Numbered from the stretch's first letter, positions 1-47,926 are shown. The stretch is 64,000 nucleotides of DNA from Euglena gracilis (GCA_039621445.1 CP154954.1:29047837-29111836), one strand, 5' to 3'. Notes: generated by a model not told the origin, from the sequence alone. Program-made: numbers and translations.

Positions 1-3000
1 TGGACCAAATTGGGCCTTACTCCGAGTAACCGAATGGGTGTTCCAGGAGGCCTCCAAAGTCAGGGGACCCGTTGGTTTCATGATTGTCGTGGTTTAATGG
101 TAAGAAAAACATGCAGCCCGAATGTTGGTTGCAAGAAATGAGCACATTTAGATGGGTGCATTCGACCATTTCGAAGGACACTTACCAGGTCAGCCCAGGT
201 TACCATGTAAAAATGGACCAAATTGGGCCTTACTCCGAGTAACCGAATGGGTGTTCCAGGAGGCCTCCAAAGTCAGGGGACCCGTTGGTTTCATGATTGT
301 CGTGGTTTAATGGTAAGAAAAACATGCAGCGGGAATGTTGGTTGCAAGAAATGAGCAGATTTAGATGGGTGCATTCGACCATTCCGGGGGACATTTACCA
401 GGTCAGCCCAGGTTACCATGTAAAAATGGACCAAATTGGGCCTTACTCCGAGTAACCGAATGGGTGTTCCAGGAGGCCTCCAAAGTCAGGGGACCCGTTG
501 GTTTCATGATTGTCGTGGTTTAATGGTAAGAAAAACATGCAGCCGGAAGGTTGGTTGCAAGAAATGAGCACACTTAGATGGGTGCATTCGACCATTCCGG
601 GGGACATTTACCAGGTCAGCCCAGGTTACCATGTAAAAATGGACCAAATTGGGCCTTACTCCGAGTAACCGAATGGGTGTTCCAGGAGGCCTCCAAAGTC
701 AGGGGACCCGTTGGTTTCATGATTGTCGTGGTTTAATGGTAAGAAAAACATGCAGCCGGAAGGTTGGTTGCAAGAAGTAGCACATTTAGATGGGTGCATT
801 CGACCATTCCGGGGGACATTTACCAGGTCAGCCCAGGTTACCATGTAAAAATGGACCAAATTGGGCCTTACTCCGAGTAACCGAATGGGTGTTCCAGGAG
901 GCCTCCAAAGTCAGGGGACCCGTTGGTTTCATGATTGTTGTGGTTTAATGGTAAGAAAAACATGCAGCGGGAATGTTGGTTGCAAGAAATGAGCACACTT
1001 AGATGGGTGCATTCGACCATTCCGGGGGACATTTACCAGGTCAGCCCAGGTTACCATGTAAAAATGGACCAAATTGGGCCTTACTCCGAGTAACCGAATG
1101 GGTGTTCCAGGAGGCCTCCAAAGTCAGGGGACCCGTTGGTTTCATGATTGTCGTGGTTTAATGGTAAGAAAAACATGCAGCGGGAATGTTGGTTGCAAGA
1201 AATGAGCAGATTTAGATGGGTGCATTCGACCATTCCGGGGGACATTTACCAGGTCAGCCCAGGTTACCATGAAAAAATGGACCAAATTGGGCCTTACTTC
1301 GAGTAACCGAATGGGTGTTCCAGGAGGCCTCCAAAGTCAGGGGACCCGTTGGTTTCATGATTGTCGTGGTTTAATGGTAAGAAAAACATGCAGCCGGAAG
1401 GTTGGTTTCAAGAAATAAGCACACTTAGATGGGTGCATTCGACCATTCCGGGGGAAATTTACCAGGTCAGCCCAGGTTACCATGTAAAACCGGACCAAAT
1501 TGGGCCTTACTCCGAGTAACCGAATGGGTGTTCCAGGAGGCCTCCAAAGTCAGGGGACCCGTTGGTTTCATGATTGTCGTGGTTTAATGGTAAGAAAAAC
1601 ATGCAGCGGGAATGTTGGTTGCAAGAAATGAGCACACTTAGATGGGTGCATTCAACCATTCCGGGGGACGTTTACCAGGTCAGCCCAGGTTACCATGCAA
1701 AAATGGACCAAATTGGGCCTTACTCCGAGTAACCGAATGGGTGTTCCAGGAGGCCTCCAAAGTCAGGGGACCCGTTGGTTTCATGATTGTCGTGGTTTAA
1801 TGGTAAGAAAAACATGCAGCCGGAAGGTTGGTTGCAAGAAATGAGCACATTTAGTTGGGTGCATTCGACCATTCCGGGGGACATTTACCAGGTCAGCCCA
1901 GGTTACCATGCAAAAATGGACCAAATTGGGCCTTACTCCGAGTAACCGAATGGGTGTTCCAGGAGGCCTCCAAAGCCAGGGGACCCGTTGGTTTCATGAT
2001 TGTCGTGGTTTAATGGTAAGAAAAACATGCAGCGAAAATGCTGGTTGCAAGAAATGAGCACATTTAGATGGGTGCATTCGACCATTTCGAAGGACACTTA
2101 CCAGGTCAGCCCAGGTTACCATGTAAAAATGGACCAAATTGGGCCTTACTCCGAGTAACCGAATGGGTGTTCCAGGAGGCCTCCAAAGTCAGGGGACCCG
2201 TTGGTTTCATGATTGTCGTGGTTTAATGGTAAGAAAAACATGCAGCGGGAATGTTGGTTGCAAGAAATGAGCAGATTTAGATGGGTGCATTCGACCATTC
2301 CGGGGGACATTTACCAGGTCAGCCCAGGTTACCATGAAAAAATGGACCAAATTGGGCCTTACTCCGAGTAACCGAATGGGTGTTCCAGGAGGCCTCCAAA
2401 GTCAGGGGACCCGTTGGTTTCATGATTGTCGTGGTTTAATGGTAAGAAAAACATGCAGCGGGAATGTTGGTTGCAAGAAATGAGCAAATTTAGATGGGTG
2501 CATTCGACCATTTCGGTGGACATTTACCAGTCAGCCCAGGTTACCATGTAAAAATGGACCAAATTGGGCCTTACTCCGAGTAACCGAATGGGTGTTCCAG
2601 GAGGCCTCCAAAGTCAGGGGACCCGTTGGTTTCATGATTGTCGTGGTTTAATGGTAAGAAAAACATGCAGCCGGAAGGTTGGTTGCAAGAAATGAGCAGA
2701 TTTAGATGGGTGCATTCGACCATTCCGGGGGAAATTTACCAGGTCAGCCCAGGTTACCATGTAAAAATGGACCAAATTGGGCCTTACTCCGAGTAACCGA
2801 ATGGGTGTTCCAGGAGGCCTCCAAAGTCAGGGGACCCGTTGGTTTCATGATTGTCGTGGTTTAATGGTAAGAAAAACATGCAGCCGGAAGGTTGGTTTCA
2901 AGAAATGAGCACATTTAGATGGGTGCATTCGACCATTCCGGGGGACATTTACCAGGTCAGCCCAGGTTACCATGTAAAAATGGACCAAATTGGGCCTTAC

Positions 3001-5616
3001 TCCGAGTAACCGAATGGGTGTTCCAGGAGGCCTCCAAAGTCAGGGGACCCGTTGGTTTCATGATTGTCGTGGTTTAATGGTAAGAAAAACATGCAGCGGA
3101 ATTGTTGGTTGCAAGAAACGAGATGGGTGCATTCGACCATTCCGGGGGACATTTACCAGGTCAGCCCAGGTTACCATGTAAAAATGGACCAAATTGGGCC
3201 TTACTCCGAGTAACCGAATGGGTGTTCCAGGAGGCCTCCAAAGTCAGGGGACCCGTTGGTTTCATGATTGTCGTGGTTTAATGGTAAGAAAAACATGCAG
3301 CCGGAAGTTTGGTTGCAAGAAATGAGCACATTTAGATGGGTGCATTCGACCATTCCGGGGGACATTTACCAGGTCAGCCCAGGTTACCATGTAAAAATGG
3401 ACCAAATTGGGCCTTACTCCGAGTAACCGAATGGGTGTTCCAGGAGGCCTCCAAAGTCAGGGGACCCGTTGGTTTCATGATTGTCGTGGTTTAATGGTAA
3501 AAAAAACATGCAGCGGGAATGTTGGTTGCAAGAAATGAGCACATTTAGATGGGTGCATTCGACCATTCCGGGGGACATTTACCAGGTCAGCCCAGGTTAC
3601 CATGTAAAAATGGACCAAATTGGGCCTTACTCCGAGTAACCGAATGGGTGTTCCAGGAGGCCTCCAAAGTCAGGGGACCCGTTGGTTTCATGATTGTCGT
3701 GGTTTAATGGTAAGAAAAACATGCAGCCGGAATGTTCGTTGCAAGAAATGAGCACACTTAGATGGGTGCATTCGACCATTCCGGGGGACATTTACCAGGT
3801 CAGCCCAGGTTACCATGTAAAAATGGACCAAATTGGGCCTTACTCCGAGTAACCGAATGGGTGTTCCAGGAGGCCTCCAAAGTCAGGGGACCCGTTGGTT
3901 TCATGATTGTCGTGGTTTAATGGTAAGAAAAACATGCAGCGGGAATGTTGGTTGCAAGAAATGAGCAGGTTTAGATGGGTGCATTCGACCATTCCGGGGG
4001 ACATTTACCAGGTCAGCCCAGGTTACCATGAAAAAATGGACCAAATTGGGCCTTACTCCGAGTAACCGAATGGGTGTTCCAGGAGGCCTCCAAAGTCAGG
4101 GGACCCGTTGGTTTCATGATTGTCGTGGTTTAATGGTAAGAAAAACATGCAGCGGGAATGTTGGTTGCAAGAAATGAGCAGATTTAGATGGGTGCATTCG
4201 ACCATTCCGGGGGACATTTACCAGGTCAGCCCAGGTTACCATGAAAAAATGGACCAAATTGGGCCTTACTCCGAGTAACCGAATGGGTGTTCCAGGAGGC
4301 CTCCAAAGTCAGGGGACCCGTTGGTTTCATGATTGTCGTGGTTTAATGGTAAGAAAAAAATGAGCGGGAACGTTGGTTGCAAGAAATGAGCAGATTTAGA
4401 TGGGTGCATTCGACCATTCCGGGGGACATTTACCAGGTCAGCCCAGGTTACCATGTAAAAATGGACCAAATTGGGCCTTACTCCGAGTAACCGAATGGGT
4501 GTTCCAGGAGGCCTCCAAAGTCAGGGGACCCGTTGGTTTCATGATTGTCGTGGTTTAATGGTAAGAAAAACATGCAGCCGGAAGGTTGGTTGCAAGAAAT
4601 AAGCACACATAGATGGGTGCATTCGACCATTCCGGGGGACATTTACCAGGTCAGCCCAGGTTACCATGTAAAAATGGACCAAATTGGGCCTTACTCCGAG
4701 TAACCGAATGGGTGTTCCAGGAGGCCTCCAAAGTCAGGGGACCCGTTGGTTTCATGATTGTCGTGGTTTAATGGTAAAAAAAACATGCAGCGGGAATGTT
4801 GGTTGCAAGAAATGAGCACACTTAGATGGGTGCATTCGACCATTCCGGGGGACATTTACCAGGTCAGCCCAGGTTACCATGTAAAAATGGACCAAATTGG
4901 GCCTTACTCCGAGTAACCGAATGGGTGTTCCAGGAGGCCTCCAAAGTCAGGGGACCCGTTGGTTTCATGATTGTCGTGGTTTAATGGTAAGAAAAACATG
5001 CAGCGGGAATGTTGGTTGCAAGAAATGAGCAGATTTAGATGGGTGCATTCGACCATTCCGGGGGACATTTACCAGGTCAGCCCAGGTTACCATGAAAAAA
5101 TGGACCAAATTGGGCCTTACTTCGAGTAACCGAATGGGTGTTCCAGGAGGCCTCCAAAGTCAGGGGACCCGTTGGTTTCATGATTGTCGTGGTTTACTGG
5201 TAAGAAAAACATGCAGCCGGAAGGTTGGTTTCAAGAAATAAGCACACTTAGATGGGTGCATTCGACCATTCCGGGGGAAATTTACCAGGTCAGCCCAGGT
5301 TACCATGTAAAACCGGACCAAATTGGGCCTTACTCCGAGTAACCAAATGGGTGTTCCAGGAGGCCTCCAAAGTCAGGGGACCCGTTGGTTTCATGATTGT
5401 TGTGGTTTATTGGTAAGAAAAACATGCAGCGGGAATGTTGGTTGCAAGAAATGAGCACACTTAGATGGGTGCATTCAACCATTCCGGGGGACGTTTACCA
5501 GGTCAGCCCAGGTTACCATGTAAAAATGGACCAAATTGGGCCTTACTCCGAGTAACCGAATGGGTGTTCCAGGAGGCCTCCAAAGTCAGGGGACCCGTTG
5601 GTTTCATGATTGTCGT
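1..5616. repeat. 213-bp tandem satellite, about 26 copies, runs off the left edge of the window
   Basis: The unit starting TGGACCAAATTGGGCCTTACTCCGAG recurs at 1, 214, 427, 640 and so on. Copies are nearly identical. The array ends abruptly after ...CATGATTGTCGT at 5616. Confidence 0.98.
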
Positions 5617-7055
5617 CCGTAGATGTCGGCCTCTGCTTCCAACAGCACTGGGCAGTTGGACTGGTGCTGCAGGCACCAACCGGCTCCAGACGTGGTAGTG
5701 TGAGACCCGCAGAGGGTGCACCGGACGTAGTAGTAGGTAGGCAGCAAAGGCGCGGGTCGCCCCCCGTCAGGGCCCGGCAGGGGCATGTCGGTGAGCCTTA
5801 TGAGAAACAGGTCACTCATTTGGAGGCTGCGTAGGATGTGCAGGAGGTCTCCAGAGTCCGGTCCTGGAAGACACCAGGGTCCGGGATTAGACTCAATGTC
5901 TCCACATGTCAGCAGATTTTCCCCCCGCCCCTGGCAAGGCAGCGCGGCACAAGACAGGTAGGGTACACGAGTCGACACCGCCTTGTTCTGGCGGTGGTAG
6001 AGCACCTCTATGTCAGTCCAGGTGCAGCGAAGGCAGCACACTTTGTGCAGCCAGGGAGGAGGGCGGTCGGGGATGTCCGGCCACGCTGCCGTGCGTGCCA
6101 CTGGGGGGTAGGGGGCGAGACAATTCTTGGGCCCGATCCGGGGTCGTGGCGGCGATGGGGGGGGTGGTGGGACAGCTGGGGGCGGCCGTTTCGGCCGCGC
6201 CGGGGGGGGCGACCACTGGAGGTCCTCCTCCCGGAGATGACCCGGGCGCTGGGCATGGAGCGCCTGAGCGAGGCGGATGGCCTCCCCCCTGGTCGGGATG
6301 CGGCGCGGGCAAGGCGAGGGAGGCGGTGCAGCGGCTGGCGCCCTTGCGCTCTCCAGGGGGGCGCCCCACAAGCGGTGACGGCGCACGAAGTCCAGCTCCC
6401 GGCCGTGTAATTCCCACCGCTCTGTGAGGAGCCGTAAGGTGCGGGCCAGCTTTTCGGTCCAGGTCTCCCCCCCTGCCTGCCGCCTGCTCTCCCTCCGAGC
6501 CAAAAATTTGGCCCGGAGTTCCCCCCGGGGGGTCCGTCCGCAGGGGTGGTCTTCTGCGCTCGGGGGGTCAGGTGGGCCTTCCTCCGGGCTTGGGGGAGGG
6601 GCCGGCACCGTTTCCTGCCACAACCCGGGCGGCTGTTCCACCCAGCCACCGAGGAACGTGGCGCCGTACTCCCACTGAGTACCATCCCAAGCATAGGGGG
6701 GCCGAGGGGGGGGTGCTGCGAAGATGCGGAAAGGGGCCGACTTGTTCCAGCCGGGGCCACTTTCATAGGCCAGGTCAAGCAGGGGGGCAGGAAGAGGGGA
6801 CCAGGGGCCCCCAGCCTCGCTTCCATCTGCTGTGGGGTCCTCCGTTCCCCTTTGGGGGGTTGGGCCGTCTTGGGGGTCTCCTCCCTGCTGGCGACGGGTG
6901 GGCCTGAGCCTTGGCCCAGCCACCCCGCTGACCGAGCTGGGGGTCTCCTCTCCAGCAGTTGCCAATCTGAAAGGGCTCCCCGGTTCCCCCACTCCAATTG
7001 TATTCTGTGAGCGCGGGCCAGATTTGAGATTTATTTTTGTAAGAACTGCCAGCAA
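5604..7055 (-). CDS. ORF2: Pro-rich ORF with a 2A (StopGo) peptide and CxxC motifs; probably a retroelement-type polyprotein, 3' end cut off by the satellite
   Basis: 483-codon open frame containing GRGENLLTCGDIESNPGP plus CCLRC and CTLC...C..H motifs. No in-frame ATG before the 2A. The TGA stop (5604-5606) lies inside the satellite unit. Confidence 0.6.
   Translation of the reverse strand: MLAVLTKINLKSGPRSQNTIGVGEPGSPFRLATAGEETPSSVSGVAGPRLRPTRRQQGGDPQDGPTPQRGTEDPTADGSEAGGPWSPLPAPLLDLAYESGPGWNKSAPFRIFAAPPPRPPYAWDGTQWEYGATFLGGWVEQPPGLWQETVPAPPPSPEEGPPDPPSAEDHPCGRTPRGELRAKFLARRESRRQAGGETWTEKLARTLRLLTERWELHGRELDFVRRHRLWGAPLESARAPAAAPPPSPCPRRIPTRGEAIRLAQALHAQRPGHLREEDLQWSPPPARPKRPPPAVPPPPPSPPRPRIGPKNCLAPYPPVARTAAWPDIPDRPPPWLHKVCCLRCTWTDIEVLYHRQNKAVSTRVPYLSCAALPCQGRGENLLTCGDIESNPGPWCLPGPDSGDLLHILRSLQMSDLFLIRLTDMPLPGPDGGRPAPLLPTYYYVRCTLCGSHTTTSGAGWCLQHQSNCPVLLEAEADIYGRQS
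5877..5930 (-). other. 2A ribosome-skipping peptide coding sequence (GRGENLLTCGDIESNPGP)
   Basis: Matches the D(V/I)ExNPGP consensus and closely resembles Thosea asigna virus T2A (EGRGSLLTCGDVEENPGP). Confidence 0.9.
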
Positions 7056-7152
7056 AAATTAGGCATTGCCTCACAGAGATTTTGGGGAATTACATTTTTC
7101 ACAGGCAAGCTGGCAAACAGTGTACAAGTTTGCGTGGGACTCTGAACTGGAT

Positions 7153-8448
7153 TCAAAGTATCAAGTCTTGTCTTCTGGGGTGCTGTGTGGGGAAGTTTGG
7201 GAAGAAGACCCCTGAAGGCTGAAAAGTTGGAATTGGCCAGAAGTCTGATGTGGTGAAATTATCTGGACACAATGGACCATCCCCCAACTTGCAATTCGCC
7301 TTGGGCTGTTCCACTCCCGACCCATCTGGGAGGGGGGGGGTGGTCCCCGATTTTTTCCGGATGCTTTTCTGTTTCAAACATGATTGGGCCATCTGGGTCA
7401 TCAATTCCCTTGTCGGGATGTTTTCCAGTTTCTGGGGGTGTCTCCCCCCAGACCTGTGGGGATTCCAACTCTGATGGGAGGGGGGGGGGGTGGCTTCATG
7501 CGCAATGGGATAGCGACAGCAATGTGGAGAGTGGTGGTGTTTCGTGTATTTTTTAGAGGGGCGATGTCGGTGATGTCGACTATGATGTCGATGTGGGCAC
7601 CTTGTCCTGGCTGTGGGTCGTTTCACCTGGCTGCATGATGATGATGATGCTGAGGAGGGTGATGATGAAGTAGAGGGTGACGATGATGTGGTTGAGGTCG
7701 ATCTTGTCGATGCTCGGGGTGGGGAATATGGAGGAGGTGGCTGGGCTTCCTGGTGCATGTCGAGGGGGGTGGGCTGCAGGAGTCTGGTTTGGTTGTGCAG
7801 CATTTGCTGCAGCTGCTGCATCTGTTGCAGCTGCTGTTGATGAAGCTGTAGCAGCGCCATGTCCATGTCCGGCTTGCTTCTGCTGTTCTTTTCCATCTCC
7901 ACCCTGCTCCTCGGAGTCAGGTCCATGTCCCACATGCCTCGTTTGAGGACTTGATCTGTGTTAGATGATGATGCTGCAGCTTTGGGCTCCATGCGGGGCT
8001 GGGGTTCCCGCCATCTGGGGCTGCAGGGCTGTCTCTGTCTCTCCTGCTGCCTGGGCCCTTCTGCATGGGGGGACCGTCTGGTGCTGCGGGGCTGTCTCTC
8101 CCGCTGCTTGGGCTGTCTGGGGCTGCAGGGCTGATACTCCTGCTGCCTGGGGTCATCACGTTTGGGGCTGCAGCGGGGCTGATACTCCCGCTGTCCCCGT
8201 CTGTCGCCACTGCTTCGGGGCTGGTACTCCCGCTGCTCGCAGGGATCGGGGTACTCCTGGTAGCTCTGCTCAATGTCCAGCTTCCTTCTTTTTCTGGACT
8301 GCTGCCTCATGGCCTGTCTCTGGGCCTTGTCTTTGTAGCGGTCGCCATATCGTTGACGGAGTGCCTCTTCCCAGGCTTCATCAGAGGCGTACTGCTCTTC
8401 TTGTCTGGAACGCCTCCTCACTTCGTGGTACTTCTTCCCATCGTCCAT
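7153..8448 (-). CDS. ORF1: intronless low-complexity protein (about 431 aa; R/Q/E repeats, RKRRK, poly-Q, poly-S, His-rich), function unknown
   Basis: ATG at 8448 (MDDGKKYHEV...), 114 nt downstream of a genomic SL copy; open to 7153; internal EYQPRS/CSP repeats. Confidence 0.6.
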   Translation of the reverse strand: MDDGKKYHEVRRRSRQEEQYASDEAWEEALRQRYGDRYKDKAQRQAMRQQSRKRRKLDIEQSYQEYPDPCEQREYQPRSSGDRRGQREYQPRCSPKRDDPRQQEYQPCSPRQPKQRERQPRSTRRSPHAEGPRQQERQRQPCSPRWREPQPRMEPKAAASSSNTDQVLKRGMWDMDLTPRSRVEMEKNSRSKPDMDMALLQLHQQQLQQMQQLQQMLHNQTRLLQPTPLDMHQEAQPPPPYSPPRASTRSTSTTSSSPSTSSSPSSASSSSCSQVKRPTARTRCPHRHHSRHHRHRPSKKYTKHHHSPHCCRYPIAHEATPPPSHQSWNPHRSGGRHPQKLENIPTRELMTQMAQSCLKQKSIRKKSGTTPPLPDGSGVEQPKANCKLGDGPLCPDNFTTSDFWPIPTFQPSGVFFPNFPTQHPRRQDLIL

Positions 8449-8562
8449 CGCCAAATTCTTGAGTAACACACCTCGCAATGTCCTGAAACTTCAGATTCCC
8501 CAGGTAAATGTTAATAAAGCTTGACCCCAACCCGGGGCTTTCAGGACAGGTTATGCGGAAGA

Positions 8563-8587
8563 CGAAAAAAAATAGACACTCAGAAAG
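8563..8587 (-). other. Genomic copy of the Euglena spliced-leader exon (CTTTCTGAGTGTCTATTTTTTTTCG)
   Basis: The reverse complement of CGAAAAAAAATAGACACTCAGAAAG matches 25 nt of the Euglena SL as I recall it (ACTTTCTGAGTGTCTATTTTTTTTCG). It is followed by TC, not a GT donor, so it is not an SL RNA gene. Confidence 0.88.
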
Positions 8588-10578
8588 AGGGTTCGCTAAA
8601 TTCAATAGGATGAACCCTTCAGGAATTAGGACCGTCATCTGCTCGCGATCACATTCCACTGGTTGACAGACCAAGAAGTGAAACCATGCAGTGACAGGTG
8701 GGTGCAATTGCTCGCGGTAGCCCTTCCAAACGACAAATAGCATGTCGACATGGGCCACGCGCACGTGCACGACACGCGCGACACACGTGTCGAGCCGTGC
8801 CGAACCATGCCGAATAAAAATGGGACAGACCCCCTTCCAACACTGCACCATTGCCCCCCCCCCCAGCGATTCCCACAGGCGGGACGGGAGTAGCTCACTG
8901 TCAGAGCACTTTTTTAAAAGAAAACCCCCAAAAGTGTTCAAAAATCGTCGTTTTTGGGGACGTTTAAAAATCACCTTTTGGCAAATGTGCTTGAAATTAA
9001 CAATTTTTTGCGAACATCCCAAAAACCAAAAAAACTTGCCAAAATGATTGAATGAGTGTCCGAGGTTCGGGTTGGGAACAGCTCGGGGGGGGGGGGGGGA
9101 CCGATCCCCCCCCTGTTCCCTTTGGGCTCAGAGGTCCCATCGTGAAGTGGTGGGGAACAGGTGGTTTTTTCCAGTTTCCAAGTGGCATTTAACGTTGCTT
9201 TTTTGTTACAGGGCTCACTGATCAAGTTCCCTCCCGAACCCAATTTTCAGCCAATTATCATAATCCTGGCAACCTCAAAACCCCAAATCCCATAAATTGG
9301 CACTCCTCACCCAAGATGTTAGCTCACTTTTTTTTGCTTTTCTATGTTTACAGCTAAACCCGAAAATGTCGGCCCTGAGTGCCGAAAACCCCGGCTCCAA
9401 GTACAAAATACTGGCCCGTGGTGCCCAAACTTGGTGAAGACTGTCCTGGATAAAGCATCTTTTGCAAATTTTTTTGGGTACAAGGAGCTGTTCCTGGGTT
9501 TTGGGGACTTGGGCTGAAATTAAAGAGATTTTTTTTTGCCGTGGACCTTCAATGGCGTTTGTTGGGTTTTTTTTTAGAAAAAGAAAACACGGTTCTTTTT
9601 TTTTTAACCGTGCTTTTCTTTTCCGGTTCAGGCGTGAAGCCAGAGCCCCTGATACACGGTTTCCATATCGAGAACTGTGTCCCAAACGCCGGTTTGGGCG
9701 TGAACCTGGTGCCTGGGACGCCAGTTCGGGTGTCAGCCCGAACCGGCAGTTCGGGCGTGAACCCGGATCCCCCTAGAAAACCTTTTCAGCTGTGTCCCAG
9801 ATGGGAATCACGGCCAATTTCGCCCCAAGTACCCATCAATCCCCAATGCCCATCAATCGAAAGCTTTCAGCAGATGGAATTCGGCCATAATGCACATAGC
9901 TCTTATTTTCAGCGATCGTGTATTCCAAAATTTGACATATTAATTTGTCAAAACCCACAGTTCAGGTTGCATATTGCCCAAAATTGGCCAAAAGGAAATT
10001 GTTGTTCAAACCCCCAATTTCCGGAAGACCCCCCTTGCCTTAGCTGTTCCTCTGGGGCTGAAGGGGGGGGGGGAAGTTTTCGCCCGTTTCGGAGCCTTTT
10101 GCAAAACCAGGAAAATTCCCAAATTTCAGGGGGGGGAAATTTTCGGGGGGGGGACAATTTACGGCTAGGGACTGTAATCATATTTGAGTTTTGTGGGTTG
10201 GGACTTTTTTTTTGTACATGCAAGGGCAGCACAGCTTCACCACTTGCATGGCCCCTGGGTCGAGGACTTGACATCTTTTGGGTTTTTTTTGTCCATTGAA
10301 CCATCCCCGGCATATATCTATCAATAAGACCCACCGCCCTGAACAGAGGTGTTCGGGAATATACCATAACAACCCCACAACATACGGCAAATGAATTCCG
10401 AATCCCGGTCGGCTTCATGGCTTCAAAGAATAGAAGGGACGAGGCAAAGTGCCCGAAACGGCCGAAAATTCCCCCCCCCCCTGGTCAAGAGCCCAAAAAC
10501 CCCTCCCTAGGGGGGGGGAAATTTACGCCCAGGGACTGTACCACATGTCTACAAACCCCTTTGGACACTTGTTGGTAC

Positions 10579-10605
10579 CTTTTTCTCTTTCCATTTCTTT
10601 CTCAG
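10579..10605 (+). promoter_or_regulatory. Polypyrimidine tract + CAG: probable trans-splice acceptor of the MAPK gene
   Basis: CTTTTTCTCTTTCCATTTCTTTCTCAG ends 13 nt before the ATG at 10619. Confidence 0.6.
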
Positions 10606-10618
10606 GATCGATCTACAG

Positions 10619-34384
<23,766 letters not shown>

Positions 34385-38660: not shown

Positions 38661-41600
38661 CCTGGCGGAGAGGAGGCCAGCAGCCAGCCTGATCGAGGAC
38701 ACATCGATTGGCACACTTCTTCAGAGGACAAACCTGCCAGTTTATACATGTACACTCCTGCCCCCCTGGTGGAATGGGGGGCCCACTGGGGGGTTACCCC
38801 GAGGTTATCCAACAAGCGTTTTGTCAAACTCCCAATGGTTTTTGCAGACAGGGGTGTAAATGGAGGTTTTAAACTTAATAATAAATGTCCCCCAGGTGGA
38901 GCACAGTGAGATGTCAAGCTGACATACTTCTTCATGTTGAACCAGGGGCAAATATTGGGACATGAAGGAATTCGGGGGATTTCCTCCGACTGAGTCTGTC
39001 TCCAACCCTTTCTTCTGACCTGGACAAAAATCTCGCCATCAACCTGGGACACTGTCCTGAAGGTTCGGCTCAAGTCCACTGAGCGATGCAAACAGATGAG
39101 TCTGAAACTTAAAATGACTTGGTCCCTCAGGTCACTGAGGCACTCTGGGGGAGGTGCTGCTGCCAACTTCTGAAGTAATGATTCAGGATTCCAAAAAGAA
39201 GGATACCTGGGGGTGGATGGGTGGATTGACATTGACTCGGATAAAACACAAACTGAAGGGACAGTGGTTCCAACCCTGGCGGAGAGGAGGCCAGCCGCCA
39301 GCCTGATCGAGGACCCCAGTCGGACTCCGGTGAAGAATGGTCCAGGAGGAAGGGACAGCGAAGGCGGAGCACAAGACAACAGTGAGGTCCTGCTCTTCTT
39401 TCCGGCTGTTGTTTTTGTGTTTGGTGTTGGTTGTGGTGCTTCTTACTGCGATGAGTTGTCGGAGTAGGCGGACTCGGAGATGTTGTCGGACTTCTCGGTG
39501 GCTGGCGGAGGTGGGTTGCTGGCCTGTCTGTGGGTGAATGGAAATTTCTCGGGGGGGGGGCTGACCGACTTTTTTGTTCTCTTCCGGGTCGGGGCGGGCG
39601 GGCTCACTGTTGTCTTGTGCTCCACCTTCGCTGTCCCCTCCTCCTGGATCATTCTTCACCGGAGTCCGAGACTGCTCCGGCTCCGCAGAAGACCCCAGTG
39701 AGGATTTGTGCACTTTTTTTTGGACAGCAACCCCCGCATTTTTTCCCGCTTCCAACCGCAAATAATGGGAAGAAAAGGCCTTCACATTTTTCCATTTTCT
39801 AATTTGGCACACTTTTTCAGAGGACAAACCTGCCAGTTTATACATGTACACTCCTGCCCCCCTGGTGGAATGGGGGGCCCACTGGGGGGGGTACCCCATG
39901 GTTATCCAACAATCGTTTTGTCAAACTCCGAATGGTTTTTGCAGACAGGGGGGTAAATGGAGGTTTTAAACTTAATAATAAATGTCCCCCAGGAGGGGCA
40001 CAGTGAGATGTCAAACTGACATATTTCTTCATGTTGAACCAGGGGCAAATATTGGGACATGAAGGAATTTGGGGGATTTCCTCCGACTGAGTCTGTCTCC
40101 AACCCTTTCTTCTGACCTGGGCAAACATCTTGCCATCAACCTGGGACACTGTCCTGAAGGTTCGGCTCAAGTCCACTGAGCGATGCAAACAGATGAGTCT
40201 GAAACTTAAAATGACTTGGTCCCTCAGGTCACTGAGGCACTCTGGGGGAGGTGCTGCTGCCAACTTCTGAAGTAATGATTCAGGATGCCAGAAAGAAGGA
40301 TACCTGGGGGTGGATGGGTGGATTGACATTGACTCGGATAAAACACAAACTGAAGGGACAGTGGTTCCAACCCTGGCGGAGAGGAGTCCTGCCGCCAGCC
40401 TGATCGAGGACCCCAGTCGGACTCCGGTGAAGAATGCTACAGAAGGAACAGACAGCGAAGGCGGAGCACAAGACAACAGTGAGGTCCTGCTCTTCTTTCC
40501 GGCTGTTGTTTTTGTGTTTGGTGTTGGTTGTGGTGCTTCTTACTGCGATGAGTTGTCGGAGTAGGCGGACTCGGAGATGTTGTCAGACTTCTCGGTGGCT
40601 GGCGGAGGTGGGTTGCTGGCCTGTCTGTGGGTGAATGGAAATTTCTCGGGGGGGGGGGGCTGACCGACCTTTTTGTTCTCTTCCGGGTCGGGGCGGGCGG
40701 GCTCACTGTTGTCTTGTGCTCCACCTTCGCTGCACCTCCTCCTGGATCATTCTTCACCGGAGTCAGAGTCTGCTCCGGCTCCGCAGAAGACCCCAGTGAG
40801 GATTTGGCACCTTTTTTTGGACAGCAACCCCCGCATTTTTTCCCGCTTCCAACCGCAAATAATGGGAAGAAAAGGCCTGCACATTTTTCCATTTTCTAAT
40901 TTGGCACACTTCTTCAGAGGACAAACCTACCAGTTTGTACACGTACACTCCTGCCCCCCTGGTGGAATGAGGGGCCCACTGTGGGGGGGGGGTACCCCGT
41001 GGTTTTCCAACAGTCGTTTTGTCAAACTCCCAATGGTTTTTGCGGACAGGGGGGTAAATGGAGGTTTTAAACTTAATAATAAATGTCCCCCAGGGGGGGC
41101 ACAGTGAGATGTCAAACTGACATATTTCTTCATGTTGAACCAGGGGCAAATATTGGGACATGAAGGAATTTGGGGGATTTCCTCCGACTGAGTCTGTCTC
41201 CAACCCTTTCTTCTGACCTGGACAAACATCTTGCCATCAACCTGGGACACTGTCCTGAAGGTTCGGCTCAAGTCCACTGAGCGATGCAAACTGATGAGTC
41301 TGAAACTTAAAATGACTTGGTCCCTCAGGTCACTGAGGCACTCTGGGGGAGGTGCTGCTGCCAACTTCTGAAGTAATGATTCAGCATTCCAAAAAGAAGG
41401 ATACCTGGGGGTGGATGGGTGGATTGACATTGACTCGGATAAAACACAAACTGAAGGGACAGTGGTTCCAACCCTGGCGGAGAGGAGGCCAGCCGCCAGC
41501 CTGATCGAGGACCCCAGTCGGACTCCGGTGAAGAATGCTCCAGAAGGAACGGACAGGGAAGGTGGAGCACAAGACAACAGTGAGGTCCTGCTCTTCTTTC

Positions 41601-44600
41601 CGGCTGTTGTTTTTGTGTTTGGTGTTGGTTGTGGTGCTTCTTACTGCGATGAGTTGTCGGAGTAGGCGGACTCGGAGATGTTGTCAGACTTCTCGGTGGC
41701 TGGCGGCGGTGGGTTGCTGGCCTGTCTGTGGGTGAATTGAAATTTCTCGGGGGGGGGGGCTGACCGACTTTTTTGTTCTCTTCCGGGTCGGGGCGGGCGG
41801 GCTCACTGTTGTCTTGTGCTCCACCTTCGCTGTCCCCTCCTCCTGGATCATTCTTCACCGGAGTCCGAGACTGCTCCGGCTCCGCAGAAGACCCCAGTGA
41901 GGATTTGTGCAGTTTTTTTTGGACAGCAACCCCCGCATTTTTTCCCGCTTCCAACCGCAAATAATGGGAAGAAAAGGCCTGCACATTTTTCCATTTTCTA
42001 ATTTGGCACACTTCTTCAGAGGACAAACCTGCCAGTTTATACATGTACACTCCTGCCCCCCTGGTGGAATGGGGGGCCCACTGGGGGGGTACCCCATGGT
42101 TATCCAACAATCGTTTTGTCAAACTCCCAATGGTTTTTGCAGACAGGGGGGTAAATGGAGGTTTTAAACTTAATAATAAATGTCCCCCAGGAGGGGCACA
42201 GTGGGATGTCAAACTGACATATTTCTTCATGTTGAACCAGGGGCAAATATTGGGACATGAAGGAATTTGGGGGATTTCCTCCGACTGAGTCTGTCTCCAA
42301 CCCTTTCTTCTGACCTGGGCAAACATCTTGCCATCAACCTGGGACACTTTCCTGAAGGTTCGGCTCAAGTCCACTGAGCGATGCAAACAGATGAGTCTGA
42401 AACTTAAAATGACTTGGTCCCTCAGGTCACTGAGGCACTCTGGGGGAGGTGCTGCTGCCAACTTCTGGAGTAATGATTCAGGATTCCAGAAAGAAGGATT
42501 CCTGGGGGTGGATGGGTGGATTGACATTGACTCGGATAAAACACAAACTGAAGGGACAGTGGTTCCAACCCTGGCGGAGAGGAGGCCTGCCGCCAGCCTG
42601 ATCGAGGACCCCAGTCGGACTCCGGTGAAGAATGCTACAGAAGGAACAGACAGCGAAGGCGGAGCACAAGACAACAGTGAGGTCCTGCTCTTCTTTCCGG
42701 CTGTTGTTTTTGTGTTTGGTGTTGGTTGTGGTGCTTCTTACTGCGATGAGTTGTCGGAGTGGGCGGACTCGGAGATGTTGTCGGACTTCTCGGTGGCTGG
42801 CGGCGGTGGGTTGCTGGCCTGTCTGTGGGTGAATTGAAATTTCTCGGGGGGGGGGGGCTGACCGACTTTTTTGTTCTCTTCCGGGTCGGGGCGGGCGGGC
42901 TCACTGTTGTCTTGTGCTCCACCTTCGCTGTCCCCTCCTCCTGGATCATTCTTCACCGGAGTCCGAGACTGCTCCGGCTCCGCAGAAGACCCCAGTGAGG
43001 ATTTGGCACCTTTTTTTGGACAGCAACCCCCGCATTTTTTCCCGCTTCCAACTGCAAATAATGGGAAGAAAAGGCCTGCACATTTTTCCATTTTCTAATT
43101 TGGCACACTTCTTCAGAGGACAAACCTACCAGTTTGTACACGTACACTCCTGCCCCCCTGGTGGAATGAGGGGCCCACTGTGGGGGGGGGTACCCCGTGG
43201 TTTTCCAACAGTCGTTTTGTCAAACTCCCAATGGTTTTTGCGGACAGGGGGGTAAATGGAGGTTTTAAACTTAATAATAAATGTCCCCCAGGGGGGGCAC
43301 AGTGAGATGTCAAACTGACATATTTCTTCATGTTGAACCAGGGGCAAATATTGGGACATGAAGGAATTTGGGGGATTTCCTCCGACTGAGTCTGTTTCCA
43401 ACCCTTTCTTCTGACCTGGACAAACATCTTGCCATCAACCTGGGACACTGTCCTGAAGGTTCGGCTCAAGTCCACTGAGCGATGCAAACTGATGAGTCTG
43501 AAACTTAAAATGACTTGGTCCCTCAGGTCACTGAGGCACTCTGGGGGAGGTGCTGCTGCCAACTTCTGAAGTAATGATTCAGCATTCCAAAAAGAAGGAT
43601 ACCTGGGGGTGGATGGGTGGATTGACATTGACTCGGATAAAACACAAACTGAAGGGACAGTGGTTCCAACCCTGGCGGAGAGGAGGCCAGCCGCCAGCCT
43701 GATCGAGGACCCCAGTCGGACTCCGGTGAAGAATGATCCAGGAGGAAGGGACAGCGAAGGCGGAGCACAAGACAACAGTGAGGTCCTGCTCTTCTTTCCG
43801 GCTGTTGTTTTTGTGTTTGGTGTTGGTTGTGGTGCTTCTTACTGCGATGAGTTGTCGGAGTAGGCGGACTCGGAGATGTTGTCGGACTTCTCGGTGGCTG
43901 GCGGCGGTGGGTTGCTGGCCTGTCTGTGGGTGAATTGAAATTTCTCGGGGGGGGGGCTGACCGACTTTTTTGTTCTCTTCCGGGTTGGGGCGGGCGGGCT
44001 CACTGTTGTCTTGTGCTCCACCTTCGCTGCACCTCCTCCTGGATCATTCTTCACCGGAGTCCGAGACTGCTCCGGCTCCGCACAAGAACCCAGTGAGGAT
44101 TTGTGCACCTTTTTTTGGACAGCAAGCCCCGCATTTTTTCCCGCTTCCAACCGCAAAAAATGGGAAGAAAAGGCCTGCACATGTTTCCATTTTCTAATTT
44201 GGCACACTTCTTCAGAGGACAAACCTGCCAGTTTATACATGTACACTCCTGCCCCCCTGGTGGAATGGGGGGCCCACTGGGGGGTTACCCCGTGGTTATC
44301 CAACAGGCGTTTTGTCAAACTCCCAATGGTTTTTGCAGACAGGGGGGTAAATGGAGGTTTTAAACTTAATAATAAATGTCCCCCAGGTGGAGCACAGTGA
44401 GATGTCAAGCTGACATACTTCTTCATGTTGAACCAGGGGCAAATATTGGGACATGAAGGAATTTGGGGGATTTCCTCCGACTGAGTCTGTCTCCAACCCT
44501 TTCTTCTGACCTGGACAAACATCTTGCCATCAACCTGGGACACTTTCCTGAAGGTTCGGCTCAAGTCCACTGAGCGATGCAAACAGATGAGTCTGAAACT

Positions 44601-45804
44601 TAAAATGACTTGGTCCCTCAGGTCACTGAGGCACTCTGGGGGAGGTGCTGCTGCCAACTTCTGAAGTAATGATTCAGGATTCCAGAAAGAAGGATACCTG
44701 GGGGTGGATGGGTGGATTGACATTGACTCGGATAAAACACAAACTGAAGGGACAGTGGTTCCAACCCTGGCGGAGAGGAGGCCTGCCGCCAGCCTGATCG
44801 AGGACCCCAGTCGGACTCCGGTGAAGAATGATCCAGGAGGAAGGGACAGCGAAGGCGGAGCACAAGACAACAGTGAGGTCCTGCTCTTCTTTCCGGCTGT
44901 TGTTTTTGTGTTTGGTGTTGGTTGTGGTGCTTCTTACTGCGATGAGTTGTCGGAGTAGGCGGACTCGGAGATGTTGTCAGACTTCTCGGTGGCTGGCGGC
45001 GGTGGGTTGCTGGCCTGTCTGTGGGTGAATTGAAATTTCTCGGGGGGGGGGGCTGACCGACTTTTTTGTTCTCTTCCGGGTCGGGGCGGGCGGGCTCACT
45101 GTTGTCTTGTGCTCCACCTTCGCTGTCCCCTCCTCCTGGATCATTCTTCACCGGAGTCCGAGTCTGCTCCGGCTCCGCAGAAGACCCCAGTGAGGATTTG
45201 TGCACCTTTTTTTGGACAGCAACCCCCGCATTTTTTCCCGCTTCCAACCGCAAATAACGGGAAGAAAAGGCCTGCACATTTTTCCATTTTCTAATTTGGC
45301 ACACTTCTTCAGAGGACAAACCTACCAGTTTGTACACGTACACTCCTGCCCCCCTGGTGGAATGAGGGGCCCACTGGGGGGGGTACCCCATGGTTTTCCA
45401 ACAGTCGTTTTGTCAAACTCCCAATGGTTTTTGCGGACAGGGGGGTAAATGGAGGTTTTAAACTTAATAATAAATGTCCCCCAGGGGGGGCACAGTGAGA
45501 TGTCAAACTGACATATTTCTTCATGTTGAACCAGGGGCAAATATTGGGACATGAAGGAATTTGGGGGATTTCCTCCGACTGAGTCTGTCTCCAACCCTTT
45601 CTTCTGACCTGGGCAAACATCTTGCCATCAACCTGGGACACTGTCCTGAAGGTTCGGCTCAAGTCCACTGAGCGATGCAAACAGATGAGTCTGAAACTTA
45701 AAATGACTTGGTCCCTCAGGTCACTGAGGCACTCTGGGGAGGTGCTGCTGCCAACTTCTGAAGTAACGATTCAGGATTCCAAAAAGAAGGATACCTGGGG
45801 GTGG
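38611..45804 (-). repeat. Tandem array of a ~1.1-kb unit (flank + right ITR + ICR + tyrosine recombinase catalytic domain), about 7 copies, the first internally deleted
   Basis: The landmark GGA(T)ACCTGGGGGTGG recurs at ~39201, 40298, 41399, 42496, 43597, 44692 and 45789. Confidence 0.95.
41325..42527 (-). CDS. Tyrosine recombinase catalytic-domain copy with an unbroken frame (array copy 4)
   Basis: From ATG at 42527: MSIHPSTPR..FW...LHRSVDL (R)...HSTRGAG (HxxR)...KWKN (W)...FSSHY (Y). Another unbroken copy lies in 43839-44870. Confidence 0.6.
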   Translation of the reverse strand: MSIHPSTPRNPSFWNPESLLQKLAAAPPPECLSDLRDQVILSFRLICLHRSVDLSRTFRKVSQVDGKMFAQVRRKGWRQTQSEEIPQIPSCPNICPWFNMKKYVSLTSHCAPPGGHLLLSLKPPFTPLSAKTIGSLTKRLLDNHGVPPQWAPHSTRGAGVYMYKLAGLSSEEVCQIRKWKNVQAFSSHYLRLEAGKNAGVAVQKKLHKSSLGSSAEPEQSRTPVKNDPGGGDSEGGAQDNSEPARPDPEENKKVGQPPPPRNFNSPTDRPATHRRQPPRSLTTSPSPPTPTTHRSKKHHNQHQTQKQQPERRAGPHCCLVLHLPCPFLLEHSSPESDWGPRSGWRLASSPPGLEPLSLQFVFYPSQCQSTHPPPGILLFGMLNHYFRSWQQHLPQSASVT

Positions 45805-47007: not shown

Positions 47008-47926
47008 TTACCCTAAATCCCCGTGGTGTGTGAGCCCCTTCCCTCCGATTTTCTTTCTTTCCCCCAGTTGAGGGTGCCCGTGTGACCACAGCCCTGCGAC
47101 CTGTAGTACCCCTGCCAGGTTGGTGGGGAACCCCAAATGTGTGGTGAGGCCAATTTGAAAGATTGATTTTGCCCTGGTTTTGAAACCCCTGCAGATCATG
47201 TGAGATTTTTGGTTGTGAAGCTTCGTCCCCCGCAAAATGTCCTGATCCATTTCTTTGGCCCTCACGTTTTCCAGGCATAAAAGGCCTTTGGCCCTCCAAC
47301 GTTTTTCCAGGCACTTCATGAGGCTCATGAATTTTTCTGGCAGCACATTTAAACCAAAACAAGCTGCCTGGAATTCCCAGCATGTTTCCTCCAGAGTCAT
47401 CCTCATGTAGGGTTTTAGGGTTGCGTTCAACATTAAATGAAAGTAGGTGTCTTTTAAGTCTACTTTCGCTCCCCACTGTCCTTTCTTCAGGTGCCTGAAG
47501 ATGACCTGGATGTTGTCCAGTTTGAAAGGGTGGGGGGGAAAGTGCTGGTTTAGTTGGCGACAATCGCTTATTAAACGATGTTTTCCCCCCTGAGGCTCTT
47601 TTTTGGAGATAACAAACCAGGGGATGATGTGTTGGGTACCCTCCCAGGGGACTGGTCTTATGGCTCCTGCTTGGAAATAGTCTTGTAAATTTTTTTTGCC
47701 TTTTGAATTTCCACCTCTGATTTTGGTATAGAAAATGTGCTGAGGTAGGGGGATGCCTCCCAAGGGGGGGGGGGTTACCCCCTGTGTTATGAGTTGCAAC
47801 ACCCTGGGGGGGGGCAACTTTCTGCCACCATGGCAACTGGGACTGAAGTCTCTGAAACAGAGGCACTCCCAAAAAGTGCTCCTCTGTCAGCAGCAGCCCC
47901 TCGGTGATCTGCTCCACAGATCTCAA
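47008..47926 (-). pseudogene. DIRS reverse transcriptase (frameshifted; YxDD region missing)
   Basis: WFVISKKE..KHRLISDCRQLN..FKLDN..KVDLKDTYFHL..FQAACFGLN. Confidence 0.88.

Follow-up and report, generated by a model that had tools for sequence, protein, structure and literature searches.

In dinoflagellates, a spliced leader (SL) standing in genomic DNA is a hallmark of retroposition from mature mRNA (PMC6050394). The retrogenes tagged in this way, termed "recycled processed cDNAs" (Slamovits and Keeling 2008; PMC6050394) and treated as DinoSL-tagged retrogenes also in PMC12014239, carry the organism's own SL in the DNA ahead of a 5' untranslated region (UTR) and an open reading frame (ORF). 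Many ordinary cellular genes are represented among them, and relict SLs lie in tandem after re-splicing. Nearer to the euglenids, the trypanosomatid L1Tc/ingi non-LTR retrotransposons have one long ORF with an in-frame 2A (Heras 2006, in PMC12338488), and the 5' end of L1Tc contains the internal promoter Pr77, and L1Tc transcripts are unspliced (PMC1874656). According to the main text of PMC12338488, eukaryotic 2A peptides are found mainly in Trypanosoma, Perkinsela, ticks, and dinoflagellates; the Excavata reports concern Trypanosoma and Perkinsela, Euglena is absent from that main text, and 2A and non-LTR retrotransposons are linked there through the titles of two references (Heras 2006; Odon 2013).

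Retroelements are associated with the SL in Euglenozoa in another manner as well, since SLACS, CZAR, and CRE interrupt the SL exon inside the SL RNA gene. The insertion point of these elements lies between SL nt 11 and 12.

We analyzed a locus of Euglena gracilis within a stretch of 64,000 nt, called the window throughout, with positions counted from its first letter. Like the dinoflagellate retrogenes, the locus has the organism's own SL in DNA before a 5' UTR and an ORF. It differs from them in lineage and in the SL itself, DinoSL ending in AG and the Euglena SL in CG; it has a single full-length SL in place of tandem relicts, and the phenomenon concerns not a multitude of ordinary cellular genes but one repeated family that is 2A-bearing and retroelement-like. 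With L1Tc/ingi it shares the euglenozoan setting, the long ORF, and the in-frame 2A, whereas L1Tc has no hard-wired SL. About 750 codons of the Euglena ORF precede the 2A, a Cys/His module comes after it, a second 2A-type motif is present in other copies, and no APE or RT is visible in the 3'-truncated copy. In contrast to SLACS, CZAR, and CRE, the SL in the window is whole and joined to a UTR, and its flank is not an SL gene. We consider it most likely (probability about 0.6) that the window holds a dead and truncated member of a family of SL-tagged retrocopies, and that this family is a retrotransposon using trans-splicing and not a promoter.

A spliced leader in genomic DNA

Read on the minus strand, positions 8587-8563 give CTTTCTGAGTGTCTATTTTTTTTCG, which is identical to nt 2-26 of the 26-nt E. 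gracilis SL (25/26 nt). The published SL is printed as ACTTTCTGAGTGTCTATTTTTTTTCG (PMC6242988) and is contained in the SL primer of PMC5654406. The SL by itself points to E. gracilis or a near relative. Its 24-nt core, TTTCTGAGTGTCTATTTTTTTTCG, has a single match in the window (minus strand, 8586-8563, 0 mismatches) and is still unique there when up to three mismatches are allowed; none of 100 dinucleotide-preserving shuffles contained any match to the 24-mer. A preceding C lengthens the match from 24 to 25 nt, and position 8588, corresponding to SL nt 1, is T in the window and A in the published SL. The presence of the SL in the DNA is real and not due to chance. No second SL and no relict of at least 12 nt is present in the 64-kb window, so the SL is single; isolated SL 11-mers occur elsewhere in the window at three positions only (29531, 26002, and 38081). 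The features of the locus are listed in Table 1.

The base following the SL is T (TCTTCC...), leaving no GT donor at the SL 3' end, and the SL is joined directly to a 114-nt stretch devoid of ATG, after which comes the ATG at 8448. No SL-intron sequence was found after the SL exon at the locus, and a search of the whole 64-kb window with Rfam at gathering thresholds returned 0 matches, hence no SL RNA or 5S rRNA model. Directly upstream of the SL stands TTTAG-CGAACCCT, and the 30 nt preceding the AG are only 57% pyrimidine. A scan of 8400-9400 for bacterial promoters and terminators was set aside as not meaningful for Euglena.

These results bear out most of what the original prediction had read from the DNA, namely a 25-nt SL match, its fusion to a 5' UTR without GT, and TTTAG-CGAACCCT immediately upstream with an AG 8 nt from the SL. 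The prediction had also allowed for the organism's SL being a different one, and the sequence proved to be the published SL of E. gracilis. Its core view is supported: the anatomy of the locus, with SL, UTR, and ORF, is that of a mature trans-spliced mRNA copied into DNA.

Table 1. Features of the SL-headed element and its surroundings in the window, in the order in which the minus strand is read
Feature	Position	Strand	Evidence
Upstream flank TTTAG-CGAACCC with AG; low-copy, outside the repeated unit	8589-8600	-	Contig depth
Position of SL nt 1, T instead of A; 5' boundary of the probable retrocopy	8588	-	Sequence; A in the other DNA context
Hard-wired SL, nt 2-26 of the 26-nt E. gracilis SL	8563-8587	-	Exact match; 0 chance matches in 100 shuffles
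5' UTR, 114 nt, no ATG, fused to the SL without GT	8449-8562	-	Sequence; X1 contig depth 1425.4
First part of the predicted polyprotein ORF (ORF1); basic, Q/S/H-rich, low complexity	7294-8448	-	Translation; Pfam
Insertion of a 292-bp hyper-abundant repeat that breaks the ORF; ATTC on both sides	7002-7293		Joint 7001->7294 in X1 and X15
Second part of the ORF; with 7294-8448, 846 codons without a stop	5617-7001	-	Translation; P0002 alignment
2A motif DIESNPGP within GRGENLLTCGDIESNPGP	5877-5900	-	Six-frame scan; aligns with 2A sites of library proteins
Predicted post-2A module with invariant C..C...H...C, cut at 5617	5617-5876	-	Alignment; AF2
213-bp satellite array, 26.4 units, truncating the 3' end of the element	1-5616		Repeat units; depth

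An interrupted polyprotein frame with a 2A site

ORF1, which the original prediction described as free of obvious introns beside heavily split neighbouring genes, runs from the ATG at 8448 to a stop at 7155-7153 (431 aa). Behind it lies a second frame (7058-5607, 484 aa) with no Met over about its first 440 residues. When contigs of four public runs were compared over 5500-9100, the interval 7002-7293 was recognized as an insertion of 292 bp, contigs without it passing directly from 7001 to 7294 in the DNA run X1 (depth 866) as well as in X15. This insert belongs to a hyper-abundant repeat (bin depth up to 226,750 in X1) and has ATTC on both sides and no terminal inverted repeats. Once the insertion is removed, the two frames fuse into one that stays open for 846 codons (8448-5617), so that ORF1 is not a stand-alone gene and contributes the first 385 codons of a frame of at least 846.

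At 5616/5617 the element meets a 213-bp satellite (26.4 units, 96% matches) that reaches a depth of 2.76 million in X1. Loose ends at 5617 indicate that other copies go on beyond this point, with different 3' continuations, and by hand translation they continue as ...DIYGDHPATGRGDA. The same motif precedes the 2A sites of related proteins and forms the C-terminus of P0001, the closest of these. The copy in the window is therefore dead, split by the 292-bp repeat and with its 3' part replaced by satellite. The original prediction rightly saw no poly(A) remnant, an absence that is uninformative because the satellite array removes the 3' end at 5617; for the same reason a target-site duplication cannot be assessed. 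Differences between this copy and other copies comprise 8 synonymous and 20 non-synonymous substitutions at the 28 readable sites among the 40 rows shown (57 further rows exist). This pattern has no sign of purifying selection and is compatible with the decay of a dead copy.

The second frame contains a canonical 2A ribosome-skipping site, LLTCGDIESNPGP (GDIESNPGP), in frame with the 846-codon ORF. It occupies codons 753-760 of the fused frame and is the only one found in a six-frame scan of the window. Pfam gave nothing significant for either ORF part, and neither an RT nor an endonuclease within 5617-8448; the only match, SR-25, was below threshold (E 0.0015, 18.6 bits against a cutoff of 40) and of low complexity.

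An exhaustive HMMER search over 1.84 billion representatives returned 19 proteins at E<=1e-3, three of them at E<=1e-10, and 18 of the 19 match residues 330-484, that is, the 2A and the module behind it. The sole close relative to emerge from the searches is P0001 (66-67% identity, no Pfam domain). The alignment with P0002 extends over 326 columns (31% identity, E 6e-30) and takes in the region before the 2A as well. Proteins P0002-P0020, from metagenome and Logan assemblies, have in common with the Euglena frame the motif GRGxxLLxCGD(V/I)ExNPGP and then a module, about 80 residues long, in which C81, C84, H99, and C103 are invariant, often with another 2A behind it. At least one 2A-like motif is present in 18 of the 20 proteins fetched, and 14 of the 20 have two or more. 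The AF2 model of the post-2A module has a pLDDT of about 90 (residues 40-118) and predicts a helix, three strands, and two helices. A fold search with this module gave no convincing match (best Foldseek E 0.43, best VIA-align Z 4.1), and rows with dsRBD-like and release-factor folds were weak and none was convincing. The combination of several 2A sites with a Cys/His module of confidently predicted fold and no structural match constitutes an uncharacterized protein family in itself.

Some of P0002-P0020 have Dam-like methyltransferase or RT-like domains, which lie beyond the reach of the truncated copy in the window. Among the eight library proteins scanned with Pfam, P0020 has a Dam methyltransferase above the cutoff and P0006 and P0015 have one below it, while RVT_1 in P0005 (E 1.2e-4, 22.3 bits) falls short of the Pfam cutoff of 29.6; the PDB match of P0005, 8c8j, has an E of 0.09 only. 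No APE or other endonuclease domain was found in the 3'-truncated window copy or in the 8 of the 20 library proteins scanned. The link to RT comes from distant relatives, with 36-43% identity over about 100 aa, and relatives of the 2A/module region range from 30 to 43% identity. Through this distant link, the module appears to belong to multi-2A polyproteins of retroelement type.

Searches of the protein index, metagenome loci, and viral contigs all failed to reveal a Euglena protein in which the ORF continues. Word-index protein searches returned no near and no longer relative and, among shorter proteins, only P0001. No metagenome locus contained the window protein or P0002, no viral contig contained the window protein, and the ESM Atlas gave no usable match. 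A viral locus obtained with P0005 as the query (L001) was judged irrelevant, with 45 residues matched, no 2A motif, and 43% GC.

The copy family and its 5' boundary

Depth in public sequencing runs separates the element from its surroundings. In X1 the element contigs have depths of 1057.1 (6257-6615), 1459.5 (7813-8004), and 1425.4 (8375-8573), and those of the upstream flank 38.2 and 16.2 (two variants of 8607-8808), 21.2, and 30, a difference of roughly 20-70-fold in summed contig depths, which are not copy numbers. In X3, element bins range from 4,664 to 19,369 against 136.6 in the flank bin 8646-8766. The label "DNA?" of both runs is a guess, and their million-fold satellite depth and evenly covered flank are consistent with DNA. 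With depth as an indirect measure, the family is present in tens of near-identical copies that are dispersed.

From the ORF start, the X1 contig of depth 1425.4 extends across the entire UTR and into the SL, of which it includes the 11 nt at the 3' end, so that the UTR-SL junction characterizes the family and is not peculiar to this locus. Between 8573 and 8607, an interval containing the SL 5' end, X1 depth drops from more than 1000 to 54; the contigs shown do not include the junction of flank and SL (8574-8606). A second DNA context was found in X1 at depth 36, in which 8587 is joined via three letters to 8222 of another copy. The base next to 8587 is here A (minus strand), which completes the full 26-nt SL. 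The boundary of the copied unit thus coincides with SL nt 1 in independent insertions, two contexts having been seen.

At least half of the words of the stretch are present in 14 runs from 10 studies, and the UTR-SL junction is found in contigs of both X1 (2018) and X3 (2025), which come from separate studies. For X15 and X16, which contain small shares of the stretch, the label "RNA?" is a guess, and no RNA run is listed among those containing most of it. What most contigs of X15 and X16 have in common with the locus is the SL alone, as part of other mRNAs; a single X15 contig of depth 2 extends over 8008-8572, with 16 more letters left unaligned. We also observed, in an RNA-labelled contig, a second class of trans-spliced transcripts that shares with the element its 3' part from 6072 onward.

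Origin of the family

Because an SL can precede a UTR in DNA only by way of an RNA that has already been trans-spliced, reverse transcription of a mature mRNA is the simplest account of the locus, and it is highly probable that the SL reached the DNA in this way. A mature SL-trans-spliced mRNA would have been reverse-transcribed up to, or nearly to, its capped 5' end and then integrated. This mRNA would have encoded one long polyprotein of at least 846 aa, with a low-complexity N-terminal part, a 2A StopGo site, and a Cys/His module, followed in other copies by a second 2A-type motif. The sharp 5' boundary, the many copies, and the 2A make the mRNA of a retrotransposon the most likely source, as does an architecture held in common with multi-2A polyproteins that have RT-like and Dam-like methyltransferase domains. 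Such a family would encode its own RT, although none was seen in the truncated Euglena copy itself. The original prediction had compared the locus to the mRNA recycling of dinoflagellates, and this comparison is upheld as far as an SL-headed retrocopy is concerned; the copy is, however, a member of a repeated 2A-bearing family and not one recycled gene.

The strongest competitor, which is the reading of the original prediction and which we regard as rather unlikely, is that a host mRNA was recycled, the family being cellular and non-autonomous, copied in trans by the RT of another element and marked by the SL as a tag. The SL-UTR-ORF anatomy fits this equally well, no RT is seen in the window copy and none was found in any Euglena relative, and P0001, the only close relative, is without a Pfam domain. 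The neutral-looking substitutions would also agree with it, and a gene family would show a second trans-spliced transcript class such as that from 6072 onward. Against it stand the canonical 2A inside a long single ORF, the reference list of PMC12338488 that ties 2A to non-LTR retrotransposons, and relatives that are multi-2A polyproteins with RT-like or methyltransferase-like domains. Tens of element copies, compared with flank depths of 21-54, likewise tell against it, and no intron-bearing parent was seen within the 64-kb window.

One ancient retrocopy might instead have been multiplied by segmental or tandem duplication of DNA, in which case family size would say nothing about repeated retroposition. 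The genome does have very large satellite and repeat loads, and the one complete 5' flank that can be read is the window's own. Yet the high depth stops within 8574-8606, where the SL 5' end is situated, and the flank beyond is low-copy; the different 5' context at 8587->8222 also begins at SL nt 1, and other copies continue 3' of 5617 instead of meeting the satellite. We therefore consider multiplication at the DNA level improbable.

An artefact of assembly or library, through cDNA-derived reads or a chimeric join in the genome assembly, would fit with the exact flank-SL join (8574-8606) being outside the contigs shown, but is very improbable given the UTR-SL junction in X1 (2018) and X3 (2025) from independent studies, the million-fold satellite depth and evenly covered intergenic flank in these same runs, and the 14 runs from 10 studies with at least half of the stretch's words. 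Equally improbable is a degenerate SL RNA gene, which the original prediction had itself raised as a danger, or a SLACS/CZAR-like site-specific insertion into an SL RNA gene: SL RNA genes are many in euglenozoan genomes and SLACS-type RTs are annotated in Diplonema (PMC10161547), but the SL in the window ends precisely at the splice junction, a UTR and an ORF come next, with that junction at family depth and with no GT and no SL-RNA intron, the window has no Rfam match including 5S rRNA, and, unlike an SL/5S repeat unit, the sequence upstream is low-copy.

Under the retrotransposon reading, the RNA of the element would be capped by trans-splicing like any Euglena mRNA, and every full-length insertion would start with the SL. 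A retrocopy would not be re-splicable at the original site, because CG and not AG precedes the UTR (TCTTCC). The family may be fed by a single master copy or a small number of them, each with a true acceptor, or re-splicing may take place at another AG. Candidate acceptors are the AG 8 nt upstream and an AG inside the SL, so that the SL's own CTTTCTGAG stretch, or the flanking AG, might allow new copies to be re-capped; either would lead to double-SL transcripts. No such transcripts were seen in the contigs shown, and no tandem or relict SLs of the kind left by repeated re-splicing and retroposition are present in the window. A single SL without a relict lends no support to repeated cycling of SL-bearing copies.

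A more far-reaching possibility, less likely than not, is that Euglena harbors a promoterless retrotransposon lineage with SL-capped RNA, SL-headed full-length insertions, and one ORF with several 2A StopGo sites. Were this so, Euglenozoa would have their first example of mRNA recycled into DNA, and no transposon family before it would have been defined by an SL terminus. Neither SL retrocopies in genomic DNA nor 2A elements are described for euglenids in the literature searched, including passages of the E. gracilis draft-genome paper (PMC6366073). An autonomous family would show how a retrotransposon lives where trans-splicing, and not gene-specific promoters, makes the 5' ends of mRNAs, and it would add a euglenid branch to the 2A-bearing retroelements. 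An SL in DNA is moreover a clean molecular tag of retroposition. If the phenomenon is genome-wide, a search for SLs without GT would catalogue all euglenid retrocopies, as in dinoflagellates, and mature mRNAs would be recycled into DNA in a second, unrelated trans-splicing lineage. As to the mismatch at SL nt 1 in the window, it is a matter of speculation that it may reflect copying at a modified cap-adjacent base.

Variant contigs and distant relatives of the element

One contig of the public run X15 (labelled 'RNA?', a guessed label) joins the spliced leader (8563) through 27 other letters to the SL-headed element from 6072 onward, and this joint suggests a second class of trans-spliced transcripts with the 2A/module part in common and a different 5' region. 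A contig of depth 2 in the same run lacks a 151-bp stretch of the element that is bracketed by two C-rich direct repeats. Because the frame shifts when this stretch is removed, it is not read as an intron of the functional ORF, and the skip is instead a copy-number variant or a deletion via repeat slippage.

Five library proteins distantly related to the element's ORF (P0003, P0006, P0007, P0015, and P0020) are polyproteins from metagenome organisms, comprising in succession a Dam-like methyltransferase segment marked by an NPPF motif, then two to four 2A sites, the Cys/His module, and lastly an RT-type N-terminal region. This multi-2A retroelement architecture seems to be uncharacterised so far.

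Features in and around the SL-headed element (window positions)
Feature	Position	Strand	Description
213-bp satellite	1-5616		26.4 units, 96% matches
Dispersed-repeat insertion	7002-7293		292 bp, hyper-abundant
Stretch absent from X15 contig	7332-7482		151 bp
Protein-kinase gene	10500-29100	+	small exons over ~18 kb
Seven tandem units	38700-45700	minus	~1.1 kb each; 300-nt cores 95-100% identical
RT-like ORF	47008-47886	minus	after tandem units; RVT_1 E 9.7e-4, below cutoff

Abundant repeats at and within the element

On its 3' side, the element is adjoined and truncated by the 213-bp satellite. Bin depth of the satellite reaches 2.76 million in X1, a run labelled 'DNA?', versus tens for the single-copy flank; although summed depth is not copy number, the satellite is thus among the most abundant sequences of the genome. 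The dispersed repeat inserted in the element attains bin depths of up to 226,750 in X1 and 485,980 in X3 (likewise labelled 'DNA?'), and ATTC lies on either side of the insertion. Neither terminal inverted repeats nor poly(A) were found in the insertion, and there is no second copy within the window. Candidate readings are a SINE-like element or a mobile sequence resembling nonconventional introns.

Neighboring genes and a possible DIRS-like element

The original observation that genes neighboring the SL-headed ORF are heavily split is borne out by the kinase gene. This gene, MAPK-like by eye, has motifs including [24 protein letters not shown] and [13 protein letters not shown], and only one of its exons reached Pfam Pkinase (E 1.5e-4, below cutoff).

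A motif scan detected no 2A motif in the tandem units or the RT-like ORF behind them, which together may represent a DIRS-like element in which one segment has been amplified. ORFs of its tandem units hold an HSTRGAG...Y stretch that, by eye, looks like a tyrosine recombinase.
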